NCBI RefSeq assembly: GCF_003334305.1
Contig: NZ_QOWS01000018.1
Direction: 5' to 3' (one strand)
DNA: 64,000 nt
Source: Escherichia coli
Lineage (GTDB): Bacteria > Pseudomonadota > Gammaproteobacteria > Enterobacterales > Enterobacteriaceae
Shown here: positions 27,811-31,327 of the stretch, piece after piece
Layout of the letters: every line of letters begins with the position of its first letter
Numbering within the stretch: the stretch's first letter is position 1
The notes under the pieces: model-generated
Told to the model about the DNA's origin: nothing
Seen by the model: the letters and a program-made list of their open reading frames with translations, nothing else
Database searches by the model: none
Made by a program: the position numbers and the translations under genes

Positions 27811-29064
27811 ATGTGCGAACATCATCATGCCGCGAAGCACATCCTGTGCTCGCAGTGTGACATGCTGGTGGCGTTACCGCGCCTTGAGCATGGTCAGAAA
27901 GCGGCATGTCCCCGGTGTGGCACAACGTTAACCGTGGCGTGGGATGCCCCTCGGCAGCGTCCCACCGCCTATGCGTTGGCTGCACTGTTCATGCTGTTGC
28001 TGTCCAACTTGTTTCCTTTTGTGAATATGAACGTTGCAGGAGTTACCAGTGAAATTACATTACTGGAAATTCCCGGCGTGCTTTTTTCTGAGGACTACGC
28101 CAGCCTCGGCACCTTTTTCCTGTTGTTTGTGCAACTGGTTCCCGCGTTTTGTCTGATAACCATTCTGTTACTGGTGAATCGCGCGGAATTACCGGTCCGT
28201 TTAAAAGAGCAACTGGCACGGGTGCTTTTTCAACTCAAAACCTGGGGAATGGCGGAGATTTTCCTCGCTGGTGTGCTGGTCAGTTTCGTTAAACTGATGG
28301 CTTACGGCAGCATTGGGGTAGGCAGCAGCTTTCTCCCCTGGTGTTTATTTTGTGTCCTGCAACTGCGCGCTTTTCAGTGCGTTGATCGTCGCTGGTTATG
28401 GGACGACATCGCCCCGATGCCAGAACTGCGCCAGCCGCTAAAACCAGGCGTCACGGGGATACGTCAGGGGCTGCGTTCGTGCTCCTGTTGTACGGCAATC
28501 CTTCCTGCTGATGAACCCGTGTGCCCGCGTTGTAGTACCAAAGGGTACGTTCGGCGTAGAAACAGCCTGCAGTGGACACTCGCGCTGCTTGTAACGTCCA
28601 TCATGCTGTATCTTCCGGCTAATATTTTGCCCATCATGGTGACGGATTTATTAGGCTCGAAGATGCCGTCGACGATTCTCGCTGGGGTCATTCTGTTATG
28701 GAGCGAAGGCTCTTATCCCGTCGCTGCGGTGATCTTTCTGGCCAGTATTATGGTGCCAACGTTAAAGATGATCGCCATCGCGTGGCTGTGTTGGGATGCC
28801 AAAGGGCATGGCAAGCGCGACAGTGAAAGAATGCATTTGATTTATGAAGTTGTTGAGTTTGTAGGCCGCTGGTCGATGATTGACGTTTTCGTTATCGCGG
28901 TGCTCTCGGCGCTGGTGCGTATGGGAGGTTTAATGAGTATTTATCCGGCAATGGGTGCATTAATGTTTGCTTTAGTCGTCATAATGACAATGTTTTCTGC
29001 TATGACGTTTGACCCGCGTTTGTCGTGGGATCGTCAACCTGAATCAGAGCATGAGGAGTCCTGA
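27811..29064 (+). CDS. pqiA: Paraquat-inducible inner membrane protein A
   Basis: 417 aa; two Cys-rich motifs (CSQCDM...CPRCG and CSCCTA...CPRCS), each followed by hydrophobic segments. Confidence 0.93.
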   Translation: MCEHHHAAKHILCSQCDMLVALPRLEHGQKAACPRCGTTLTVAWDAPRQRPTAYALAALFMLLLSNLFPFVNMNVAGVTSEITLLEIPGVLFSEDYASLGTFFLLFVQLVPAFCLITILLLVNRAELPVRLKEQLARVLFQLKTWGMAEIFLAGVLVSFVKLMAYGSIGVGSSFLPWCLFCVLQLRAFQCVDRRWLWDDIAPMPELRQPLKPGVTGIRQGLRSCSCCTAILPADEPVCPRCSTKGYVRRRNSLQWTLALLVTSIMLYLPANILPIMVTDLLGSKMPSTILAGVILLWSEGSYPVAAVIFLASIMVPTLKMIAIAWLCWDAKGHGKRDSERMHLIYEVVEFVGRWSMIDVFVIAVLSALVRMGGLMSIYPAMGALMFALVVIMTMFSAMTFDPRLSWDRQPESEHEES

Positions 29065-29068
29065 CAGT

Positions 29069-30709
29069 ATGGAATCTAATAATGGGGAAGCCAAAATCCA
29101 GAAAGTGAAGAACTGGTCTCCCGTGTGGATATTTCCTATCGTCACGGCGCTCATTGGGGCCTGGGTTCTTTTTTATCATTACAGCCATCAGGGACCGGAA
29201 GTGACCCTGATCACCGCGAATGCGGAAGGAATTGAAGGTGGCAAAACCACCATTAAAAGCCGTAGCGTTGACGTCGGCGTGGTTGAAAGCGCCACACTGG
29301 CTGATGATTTGACGCACGTTGAAATCAAAGCGCGGCTGAATTCCGGTATGGAAAAATTGCTGCATAAAGACACCGTCTTTTGGGTGGTGAAACCGCAGAT
29401 TGGTCGCGAAGGGATTAGCGGCCTGGGAACGCTGCTGTCTGGAGTTTATATCGAACTGCAGCCAGGCGCGAAAGGCAGCAAAATGGATAAATACGATTTG
29501 CTGGACTCGCCACCGTTGGCCCCGCCTGATGCGAAAGGTATCCGTGTGATTCTCGATAGCAAAAAAGCCGGGCAGCTCTCGCCAGGAGATCCGGTGCTGT
29601 TCCGTGGCTATCGGGTAGGTTCGGTTGAAACCAGCACCTTCGATACACAAAAACGCAATATCAGCTATCAACTGTTCATCAATGCACCTTATGACCGACT
29701 GGTGACCAACAATGTTCGCTTCTGGAAAGATAGTGGCATTGCGGTTGATCTGACGTCAGCAGGGATGCGTGTGGAGATGGGCTCATTGACAACGCTGCTG
29801 AGTGGCGGTGTCAGCTTTGATGTGCCGGAAGGTCTGGATTTAGGGCAGCCAGTGGCACCGAAAACAGCTTTCGTTTTGTATGATGATCAGAAGAGCATTC
29901 AGGATTCGTTGTACACCGATCACATTGATTATCTGATGTTCTTTAAAGATTCGGTACGCGGTCTGCAACCGGGAGCTCCGGTAGAGTTCCGGGGTATTCG
30001 CCTGGGTACCGTAAGCAAAGTGCCATTCTTTGCGCCGAATATGCGTCAGACATTTAACGATGATTACCGTATTCCGGTACTGATTCGTATCGAGCCAGAG
30101 CGGCTGAAAATGCAGCTTGGCGAAAATGCGGATGTTGTTGAGCACCTTGGCGAATTGTTGAAACGTGGTTTACGCGGATCGCTGAAAACCGGAAACCTGG
30201 TCACTGGTGCACTGTATGTTGATCTCGATTTCTATCCAAATACGCCTGCAATAACCGGTATTCGTGAATTTAATGGTTATCAGATTATCCCGACCGTTAG
30301 CGGCGGCCTGGCGCAAATCCAGCAACGACTGATGGAAGCGTTGGATAAGATCAACAAACTGCCATTGAATCCGATGATTGAACAGGCAACCAGTACGCTT
30401 TCTGAAAGTCAGCGCACAATGAAAAACCTGCAAACGACGCTGGATAGCATGAACAAGATCCTCGCTAGCCAGTCGATGCAGCAGTTGCCGACGGATATGC
30501 AGTCAACGTTGCGTGAATTGAATCGCAGCATGCAGGGCTTCCAGCCTGGCTCCGCAGCCTACAACAAGATGGTGGCGGATATGCAGCGCCTTGATCAGGT
30601 GTTGCGAGAACTGCAACCGGTGCTGAAAACGCTCAATGAGAAGAGTAACGCGCTGGTATTTGAAGCGAAGGACAAAAAAGATCCAGAGCCGAAGAGGGCG
30701 AAACAATGA
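29069..30709 (+). CDS. pqiB: MCE-domain envelope protein PqiB
   Basis: Track ORF trimmed to MESNNGEAKIQKVKNWSPVWIFPIV (546 aa); GAGGAG RBS 10 nt upstream; N-terminal TM helix then repeated MCE-like segments. Confidence 0.93.
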   Translation: MESNNGEAKIQKVKNWSPVWIFPIVTALIGAWVLFYHYSHQGPEVTLITANAEGIEGGKTTIKSRSVDVGVVESATLADDLTHVEIKARLNSGMEKLLHKDTVFWVVKPQIGREGISGLGTLLSGVYIELQPGAKGSKMDKYDLLDSPPLAPPDAKGIRVILDSKKAGQLSPGDPVLFRGYRVGSVETSTFDTQKRNISYQLFINAPYDRLVTNNVRFWKDSGIAVDLTSAGMRVEMGSLTTLLSGGVSFDVPEGLDLGQPVAPKTAFVLYDDQKSIQDSLYTDHIDYLMFFKDSVRGLQPGAPVEFRGIRLGTVSKVPFFAPNMRQTFNDDYRIPVLIRIEPERLKMQLGENADVVEHLGELLKRGLRGSLKTGNLVTGALYVDLDFYPNTPAITGIREFNGYQIIPTVSGGLAQIQQRLMEALDKINKLPLNPMIEQATSTLSESQRTMKNLQTTLDSMNKILASQSMQQLPTDMQSTLRELNRSMQGFQPGSAAYNKMVADMQRLDQVLRELQPVLKTLNEKSNALVFEAKDKKDPEPKRAKQ

Positions 30710-31269
30710 AAAAGTGGCTAGTGACGATTGCAGCACTGTGGCTGGCCGGATGCAGCTCCGGCGAAATTAATAAAAACTATTACCAGTTACCTGTGGTGCA
30801 GAGCGGTACACAAAGTACCGCCAGCCAGGGCAATCGTCTGTTATGGGTAGAGCAGGTCACTGTTCCTGACTATCTGGCGGGGAATGGTGTGGTTTATCAA
30901 ACCAGTGATGTGAAGTATGTGATTGCCAACAACAACTTGTGGGCCAGCCCGTTGGATCAACAGTTGCGCAACACCCTGGTTGCCAACCTGAGTACGCAAC
31001 TGCCCGGCTGGGTGGTTGCCTCCCAGCCTCTGGGAAGCGCCCAGGACACGCTCAATGTTACCGTAACGGAGTTTAACGGTCGCTATGATGGCAAGGTCAT
31101 TGTCAGTGGTGAGTGGCTGTTGAACCACCAGGGACAACTGATCAAACGTCCGTTCCGTCTGGAAGGAGTGCAAACTCAGGATGGTTACGATGAGATGGTT
31201 AAAGTACTGGCCAGTGTCTGGAGTCAGGAAGCCGCTTCTATTGCGCAAGAGATAAAGCGTCTACCTTAA
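30706..31269 (+). CDS. pqiC: Outer membrane lipoprotein PqiC
   Basis: 187 aa; lipobox LAGC in MKKWLVTIAALWLAGCSSGE; ATGA start/stop overlap with pqiB. Confidence 0.92.
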   Translation: MKKWLVTIAALWLAGCSSGEINKNYYQLPVVQSGTQSTASQGNRLLWVEQVTVPDYLAGNGVVYQTSDVKYVIANNNLWASPLDQQLRNTLVANLSTQLPGWVVASQPLGSAQDTLNVTVTEFNGRYDGKVIVSGEWLLNHQGQLIKRPFRLEGVQTQDGYDEMVKVLASVWSQEAASIAQEIKRLP

Positions 31270-31288
31270 TTATAAAGATTTGTAAATA

Positions 31289-31327
31289 TAACCGTCTCCG
31301 GTATGTTGCCTGAGGCGGTTTTTTTGT
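31289..31327 (+). terminator. pqiABC operon terminator
   Basis: Imperfect hairpin accgtctcc...tgaggcggt followed by ttttttt. Confidence 0.55.

Follow-up and report, generated by a model that had tools for sequence, protein, structure and literature searches.

Our analysis indicates, with a probability that we put at about 90%, that positions 27811-31327 of a 64,000-nucleotide (nt) stretch of Escherichia coli DNA (contig NZ_QOWS01000018.1; hereafter the window) are the E. coli pqiABC operon, three genes on the same strand closing at a single intrinsic terminator. The three open reading frames are intact and lie in the order pqiA-pqiB-pqiC, both in the list of open reading frames and when re-derived by script, and their coordinates match those of the RefSeq genes b0950-b0952 of K-12 MG1655 exactly. 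The 3.7-kb stretch is 100% identical in DNA to the chromosome of E. coli FORC_069, whose RefSeq annotation gives the same frames, and the locus is 99.9% identical to K-12-type strains. Gene order, lengths, junctions and neighbours are those of the K-12 PqiABC locus (structures 5UVN and 8Q2C/8Q2D); the differences are at strain level and in nucleotides only, with nothing functional seen. A match to the locus was present in 5426 of the 5426 complete E. coli genomes, each at an identity of at least 95%, and pqiA, pqiB and pqiC were annotated in every match among those listed. The first-pass annotation had read the segment as pqiABC, an already described envelope system with MCE domains, and the matches to NCBIfam, Pfam and solved structures all agree with this reading. 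All the defining features of the PqiABC family that we tested at the level of the sequence were found, and we found no evidence contradicting the identification. The locus is already known in detail, being the reference one, for which there are solved structures and recent mechanistic studies.

The operon ends in a hairpin followed by seven T and then by GTTT (Table 1), as had been proposed at first pass. Its centroid structure has an energy of -17.7 kcal/mol (z score -3.5, with 1 of 200 shuffled sequences folding as well), and a terminator scan reports the same site. We surveyed 80 species-level loci taken from genome assemblies, with PqiB identities of 81-99%, of which 79 carry all three genes. 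A hairpin with a T-run stands 47-63 nt past the pqiC stop in all 78 of 78 related loci, in the form of 73 distinct hairpin sequences. The element is a predicted intrinsic (Rho-independent) terminator, in which the structure rather than the sequence is conserved. Since the geometry of the junctions and of the terminator is conserved in 78 further Enterobacteriaceae species while the sequences differ, both are more than chance arrangements.

E. coli keeps its outer membrane intact by means of three MCE systems, of which PqiABC is one. The question of how phospholipids get to the outer membrane is a genuinely open one, and the window contributes nothing new to it. What the comparison of relatives adds is minor, namely the family-wide occurrence of the pqiB/pqiC overlap and of the terminator, the ribosome-binding site of pqiC embedded in pqiB, and a spacer insertion in Escherichia. 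These details are minor refinements, not discoveries, and are unsurprising. They are of use when the operon is to be engineered or mutated: the ribosome-binding site of pqiC lies within the codons of the PqiB tail, and changes in the PqiB C-terminus could therefore also alter pqiC translation.

Architecture of the three proteins

PqiA carries two matches to Pfam PF04403, at residues 49-200 and 253-408 (E-values 3.8e-39 and 3.9e-53), and scores 844 bits against NCBIfam NF011683, whose curated cut-off is 562. Each module of PqiA, like those of LetA, is preceded by a zinc-ribbon motif of the form CxxC...CxxC, found ahead of the hydrophobic block of the first module and again ahead of that of the second, both modules being in one polypeptide. 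The first half of the protein is homologous to the second (E 3e-10). Moreover, residues 12-409 align with the solved LetA/YebS structure 9N8W, both zinc ribbons included (E 1e-43). On these features PqiA is predicted to be an inner-membrane protein of the LetA family, built of two modules that each join a cytoplasmic zinc ribbon to a membrane domain; the literature on the same proteins also places it in the inner membrane, with LetA as its only relative.

PqiB had been described at first pass as carrying repeated MCE-like segments after one transmembrane helix, and this was borne out. A single hydrophobic 19-mer makes up the transmembrane helix, and a hidden Markov model search found three MCE domains after it (E-values 3e-12 to 3e-9), so that an absence of MCE matches is not the case. 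Between residues 409 and 538, weak coiled-coil-type Pfam matches are in keeping with a helical tail, the C-terminal 'needle' region. The protein scores 862.5 bits against NCBIfam NF008070 (cut-off 525) and matches the solved structure 5UVN at E 5e-264; with the MlaD equivalog model of NCBIfam it reaches 33.8 bits, far under the cut-off of 135. PqiB would thus be anchored in the inner membrane via one helix and continue with its three MCE domains and then a long helix at the C-terminus.

The lipobox LAGC announced for PqiC is present, with the cysteine at residue 16 followed by SSGE. The remainder of the protein holds an ABC_trans_aux (DUF330) domain at residues 26-180 (Pfam PF03886, E 9.3e-41), the score against NCBIfam NF033620 is 286.4 bits (cut-off 200), and there are matches to the PDB entries 8Q2C (E 1.4e-122), 8Q2D and 6OSX. 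PqiC is, as predicted from these features, an outer-membrane lipoprotein.

A longer pqiB frame starting with TTG at 29009 was considered and rejected: the ATG at 29069 has a Shine-Dalgarno sequence, fits the RefSeq start and that of the NCBIfam model, and is conserved in all relatives compared. Opposite the 5' part of pqiB, the minus strand holds a TTG-started frame of 223 amino acids (29000-29671), which we took to be a by-product of the pqiB frame.

Table 1. Coordinates of the pqiABC genes and of the features discussed, in positions of the window.
Feature	Position (nt)	Strand	Details
uup-pqiA spacer	27682-27810	+	129 nt
Sigma-70-like match	27699-27727		TAAACA-17-TAAAAT
REP-like palindrome	27729-27753		GCCTGATGAACTGGGTTTATCAGGC
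pqiA Shine-Dalgarno	27801-27805		AGGAG, 5 nt before start
pqiA	27811-29064	+	417 amino acids, ATG...TGA
PqiA zinc ribbon 1	27847-27918		C13/C16/C33/C36
PqiA zinc ribbon 2	28480-28533		C224/C227/C238/C241
pqiB Shine-Dalgarno	29053-29058		GAGGAG, 10 nt before start
pqiB	29069-30709	+	546 amino acids, ATG...TGA
PqiB transmembrane helix	29117-29173		residues 17-35
PqiB MCE1	29192-29467	+	residues 42-133, Pfam PF02470 (MlaD/MCE)
PqiB MCE2	29537-29767	+	residues 157-233, Pfam PF02470 (MlaD/MCE)
PqiB MCE3	29930-30232	+	residues 288-388, Pfam PF02470 (MlaD/MCE)
PqiC-binding C-terminal peptide of PqiB	30656-30706	+	residues 530-546, role from bioRxiv 10.64898/2026.05.09.724024
pqiC Shine-Dalgarno	30692-30698		AAGAGGG, 8 nt before start
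pqiC	30706-31269	+	187 amino acids, ATG...TAA
PqiC lipobox	30742-30753		LAGC, residues 13-16
Predicted intrinsic terminator	31290-31329	+	hairpin 31290-31320 (G+C core 31292-31318), TTTTTTT 31319-31325, then GTTT

Gene junctions and their meaning for translation

Both internal junctions are tight. The TGA of pqiA (29062-29064) is separated by CAGT (29065-29068) from the ATG of pqiB, which begins at 29069, and pqiB and pqiC share an ATGA (30706-30709) that holds the start of one gene and the stop of the other. This ATGA overlap had been pointed out in the first-pass annotation, which also had pqiA stopping 5 bp ahead of pqiB; the tightness of that junction stands, and the figure is right only as the distance from last to first base, there being four intervening bases, a minor matter of wording. 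The Shine-Dalgarno sequence of pqiB lies within the last codons of pqiA (H-E-E-S-stop), and the one of pqiC, which is purine-rich, is drawn from the pqiB codons K542-R543(AGG)-A544. At both junctions, then, the stop is near or overlaps the next start and the Shine-Dalgarno sequence is inside the upstream gene, which is the geometry of a coupled pair.

An overlap of pqiB with pqiC was present in 79 of the 79 Enterobacteriaceae loci, as ATGA or GTGA (-4) in 57 and as a single shared nucleotide (-1) in 22. The distance between pqiA and pqiB was +4 in 45 of these loci, -11 in 25, -14 in 4 and +1 to +3 in another 4; one value among the 79 is an artefact of an N in the assembly. A search for homologous proteins alone gave relatives at 86% identity or more, and representatives of 50% clusters were therefore searched for distant loci, which yielded 8 loci at 33-62% PqiB identity. 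In these eight, pqiB and pqiC overlap by 4 nt in 6 and by 1 nt in 1, and the pqiA/pqiB distance ranges from -17 to +19. The order pqiA-pqiB-pqiC is the same in the 79 loci and in the distant ones, down to 33% PqiB identity.

The exception to the tight pqiB/pqiC junction is an A+T-rich genome (GCA_002933345.1, our locus L087, positions 6144-6727) with a PqiB that is 44% identical. There pqiC lies more than 100 nt from pqiB, and its product is shortened and devoid of signal peptide and lipobox, possibly because pqiC is decaying in a reduced genome; all the other loci have the tight junction. In two other distant relatives (L090, 1-700; L091, 3392-4508) two single-module genes with an 11-nt overlap take the place of pqiA, a split described in the LetA paper for some bacteria, and the pattern of tight junctions reaches the split itself.

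The last codons of pqiB serve two purposes, specifying the PqiC-binding tail and forming the ribosome-binding site of pqiC. The codon of Arg543 (30695-30697) is AGG in 67 of the 67 loci that have arginine there, whereas AGG makes up 1.5% of the arginine codons elsewhere in pqiB. Where residue 543 is not arginine it is glycine (GGG or GGA), and the purine run is retained. Because this rare codon is kept in all 67 loci, the Shine-Dalgarno sequence of pqiC is clearly under selection of its own.

As read from the sequence, the geometry of the junctions fits co-expression and possibly re-initiation, and may permit coupled translation: a ribosome ending one pqi gene would stop beside the start of the next, which would favour co-expression and perhaps allow it to re-initiate. 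Several observations weigh against giving coupling a larger part. The RNA around both internal starts is no more folded than shuffled sequence (z +1.48 and -0.81), with no masking structure, and both starts have a Shine-Dalgarno sequence of their own; independent initiation is therefore equally possible. Moreover, the subunit numbers are unequal, with six PqiB, eight PqiC and probably one PqiA, and coupling alone cannot therefore set the stoichiometry or impose a 1:1:1 output. The tight stoichiometric coupling proposed at first pass is upheld as far as the junctions are tight and conserved, but the word stoichiometric is overstated, since PqiB is a hexamer and PqiC an octamer, and one LetA is found per LetB hexamer (PMC13017536). 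Most likely, it is the individual Shine-Dalgarno sites, and not coupling, that set the unequal outputs needed by the complex. The supplements of absolute proteomes had no entry for pqiA, pqiB, pqiC or ymbA, and a literature search for synthesis-rate or abundance data on the pqi genes gave no usable table.

The strongest competing view is that the tight junctions reflect ordinary operon compaction, PqiB and PqiC being mostly initiated independently with no obligate coupling. We consider this a serious contender, with chances somewhat short of even. It draws on the recognisable Shine-Dalgarno sites at both starts, 8-10 nt away and unmasked by stable structure, on the selection on that of pqiC in its own right, on the unequal amounts that a hexamer, an octamer and a probable monomer require, and on the spread of the pqiA/pqiB distance among relatives. 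However, a pqiB/pqiC overlap of 1 or 4 nt in every Enterobacteriaceae locus and in 7 of the 8 distant ones is more constant than compaction alone predicts. Most junctions in the paralogous loci are likewise overlaps or very short gaps, as came out of the comparison with the mlaD and yebT loci: in K-12, letA and letB overlap by 32 nt, and in the mla operon the gaps are 7 nt (mlaF/mlaE), 4 nt (mlaE/mlaD) and 18 nt (mlaD/mlaC), with a 1-nt overlap of mlaC and mlaB. Junctions that favour co-expression, with outputs tuned at each ribosome-binding site, remain the reading that we prefer.

Assembly, cargo and related MCE systems

The functional steps of PqiABC are taken from the literature and not read from the sequence. 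PqiB has been described as a homohexamer whose three MCE rings and C-terminal helices form a syringe-like tunnel of ~230 Å, and PqiC as an octamer, PqiAB being tethered to the outer membrane (PMC10897342). PqiB no longer binds PqiC when its residues 530-546 are deleted or when D538, P539 or P541 carries a point change, and an AlphaFold model puts the PqiB tail into a hydrophobic groove on PqiC (bioRxiv 10.64898/2026.05.09.724024). For LetAB, cryo-electron microscopy and mutational scanning support the model that the first MCE ring is opened by LetA, which hands an inner-membrane phospholipid to the tunnel (PMC13017536). The Pqi complex can be pictured in the same manner. Six PqiB would stack as three MCE rings prolonged by a hollow coiled-coil needle ~230 Å long; eight PqiC would form a ring at the outer membrane, gripping the needle via the last ~17 residues of PqiB; and PqiA, by analogy with LetA-LetB, would sit beneath the first MCE ring and load lipid into the tunnel. 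Phospholipid or another hydrophobic cargo would then pass through the tunnel between the two membranes.

On the functional side, too, there are points to be set against this picture. A PDB search found no structure of the PqiABC holo-complex, and the cited papers leave the substrate, the direction, the energy source and the outer-membrane step open (PMC10897342, PMC13017536, bioRxiv 10.64898/2026.05.09.724024). PqiABC is called a 'putative' phospholipid transporter of unclear direction (PMC10897342; bioRxiv 10.64898/2026.05.09.724024), and for LetAB the choice between passive and proton-driven transport, as well as the direction, is stated to be unresolved (PMC13017536). The remark made at first pass that the physiological substrate is still debated is in line with this literature of 2024 and 2026.

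The cargo may accordingly be something other than bulk phospholipid moving outward, be it other hydrophobic molecules, lipids in retrograde transport, or a substrate passing across the outer membrane. We regard this as rather unlikely. The clearest phenotype of pqiAB loss is a sensitivity to lauryl sulfobetaine, additive with that of yebST (letAB) loss, and the authors raised non-lipid substrates as possible (PMC5561183); the 2026 preprint finds it unclear whether transport runs between the membranes or across the outer one (bioRxiv 10.64898/2026.05.09.724024), and the directionality of LetAB is, as said above, stated to be unresolved. On the other hand, MCE proteins including PqiB bind phospholipids (PMC5561183), and the LetA model puts a phospholipid in the loading pocket (PMC13017536). 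The sequence itself offers nothing to tell these cargos apart, and the transfer of phospholipid or another hydrophobic cargo between the two membranes stays our favoured picture.

Among the known systems, LetAB (YebST; 9N8W, 6V0C) is one of the closest to PqiABC. LetA, like PqiA, belongs to the family of inner-membrane proteins with two zinc-ribbon and membrane-domain modules; LetB, like PqiB, is a multi-MCE hexameric tunnel protein, which PqiB matches at E 5e-82; and the genes form a closely spaced pair, the two systems having overlapping phenotypes (PMC13017536; PMC5561183). However, LetB has 877 residues and six to eight MCE domains in its family, compared with three in PqiB, and is devoid of the coiled-coil needle, and the let locus has no gene for a PqiC-like lipoprotein.

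The Mla system (mlaFEDCB and MlaA) resembles Pqi in that an MCE hexamer stands on an inner-membrane partner, in its role in lipid traffic and outer-membrane integrity, and in its similarly short gene junctions. It differs by the single MCE domain of MlaD, by the ABC transporter MlaFEB that gives the energy, and by the soluble shuttle MlaC used instead of a tunnel, with an outer-membrane partner, MlaA, of a different fold. In the PA3211-PA3214 system of Pseudomonas aeruginosa, the tail peptide of an MCE needle protein docks on an octameric ring of a PqiC-like lipoprotein, as in Pqi, whereas the inner-membrane part is an ABC transporter and not a protein of the PqiA/LetA type (bioRxiv 10.64898/2026.05.09.724024).

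Transcription, the uup-pqiA spacer and neighbouring elements

A consensus scan for sigma-70 sites over 27400-31800 (4.4 kb) found one site, upstream of pqiA, where chance alone would give 4.5. None was found inside pqiA, pqiB or pqiC, in a scan that is blind to sigma-S or activator-dependent promoters. An Rfam search of 27000-32600 at a permissive threshold gave three sub-threshold chance matches, none of them within the operon. Co-transcription of pqiABC as an operon is supported, indirectly only, because there is no internal promoter-like site, because the single terminator is conserved, and because later publications treat pqiABC as an operon (PMC10897342; PMC5561183, as a predicted operon structure). 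That the three genes are instead more than one transcription unit, with internal promoters driving pqiB and/or pqiC, is very improbable: the blind spot of the scan leaves room for it and direct evidence for it was not found, but the genes contain no sigma-70-like site, there is no space for a promoter between them, one conserved terminator follows pqiC, the gene order is retained with its overlaps to 33% identity, and the literature describes an operon.

The spacer between uup and pqiA contains this only sigma-70-like match of the region, followed by a palindrome of the repetitive extragenic palindromic (REP) type whose arms equal those of REP copies elsewhere in the window (Table 1). Such long spacers are found in Escherichia only: the one in the window has 129 nt, that of another Escherichia species 128 nt and that of E. 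whittamii 203 nt, the last with a canonical REP at the same place (L012, 2080-2110). In 69 of 72 related Enterobacteriaceae loci, the uup stop is 11-18 nt from the pqiA start, with a Shine-Dalgarno sequence in between, and in one further locus the distance is 30 nt. By this comparison the spacer before pqiA is an Escherichia-specific insertion, and outside Escherichia pqiABC resembles the end of an rlmL-uup-pqiABC gene string.

The name 'paraquat-inducible' goes back to a promoter activated by SoxS/MarA/Rob, with a marbox/soxbox upstream of the core promoter. The spacer is where we would expect the paraquat-responsive promoter or promoters to lie. Searching 27682-27810 with the marbox/soxbox consensus AYNGCACNNWNNRYYAAAY gave no match at two or fewer mismatches; window-wide there were 14 matches against 17.7 expected, hence no enrichment. 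If SoxS- or RpoS-responsive promoters do sit in the insert, Escherichia would have freed Pqi expression from its tie to uup and brought it under stress control. That paraquat-inducible regulation is a lineage-specific add-on and not a property of the Pqi system is nevertheless quite unlikely in our view.

The adjacency of uup could also suggest that the ABC-F ATPase Uup is functionally linked to the Pqi transporter, which has no known energy source of its own. We give this link little weight, since in each of the five distant loci whose upstream context is visible pqiA stands beside other genes and not beside one of the uup type. Uup was for that reason also set aside as the missing energy source of Pqi.

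In one distant contig (P0240), pqiABC, with a PqiB of 33% identity, lies directly downstream of a gene for a PlsB-type glycerol-3-phosphate acyltransferase (Pfam Acyltransferase and GPAT_C), which is there a phospholipid-synthesis neighbour of the operon.

REP-type palindromes of the form GCCTGATG...ATCAGGC lie elsewhere in the window at 78-102, 8895-8927, 9004-9036 and 56357-56388; the pattern has 6 matches window-wide, compared with 0.01 expected by chance.

The operon is flanked by rlmL and uup upstream and by rmf, fabA and ycbZ downstream. In 77 of 78 loci, rmf has the same orientation as the operon and follows it at a distance of 243-268 nt. In its leader, ~45 nt before the rmf start codon, positions 31460-31482 hold a terminator-like hairpin (GTGATTGC...GTAATCAC, with a T-rich tail), which may be due to chance or be part of rmf regulation. 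Finally, between the convergent rmf and fabA genes, a perfect 11-bp palindrome (GAAACCTCCGC-(3 nt)-GCGGAGGTTTC, 31710-31734) has a terminator score on both strands and is probably a bidirectional terminator.

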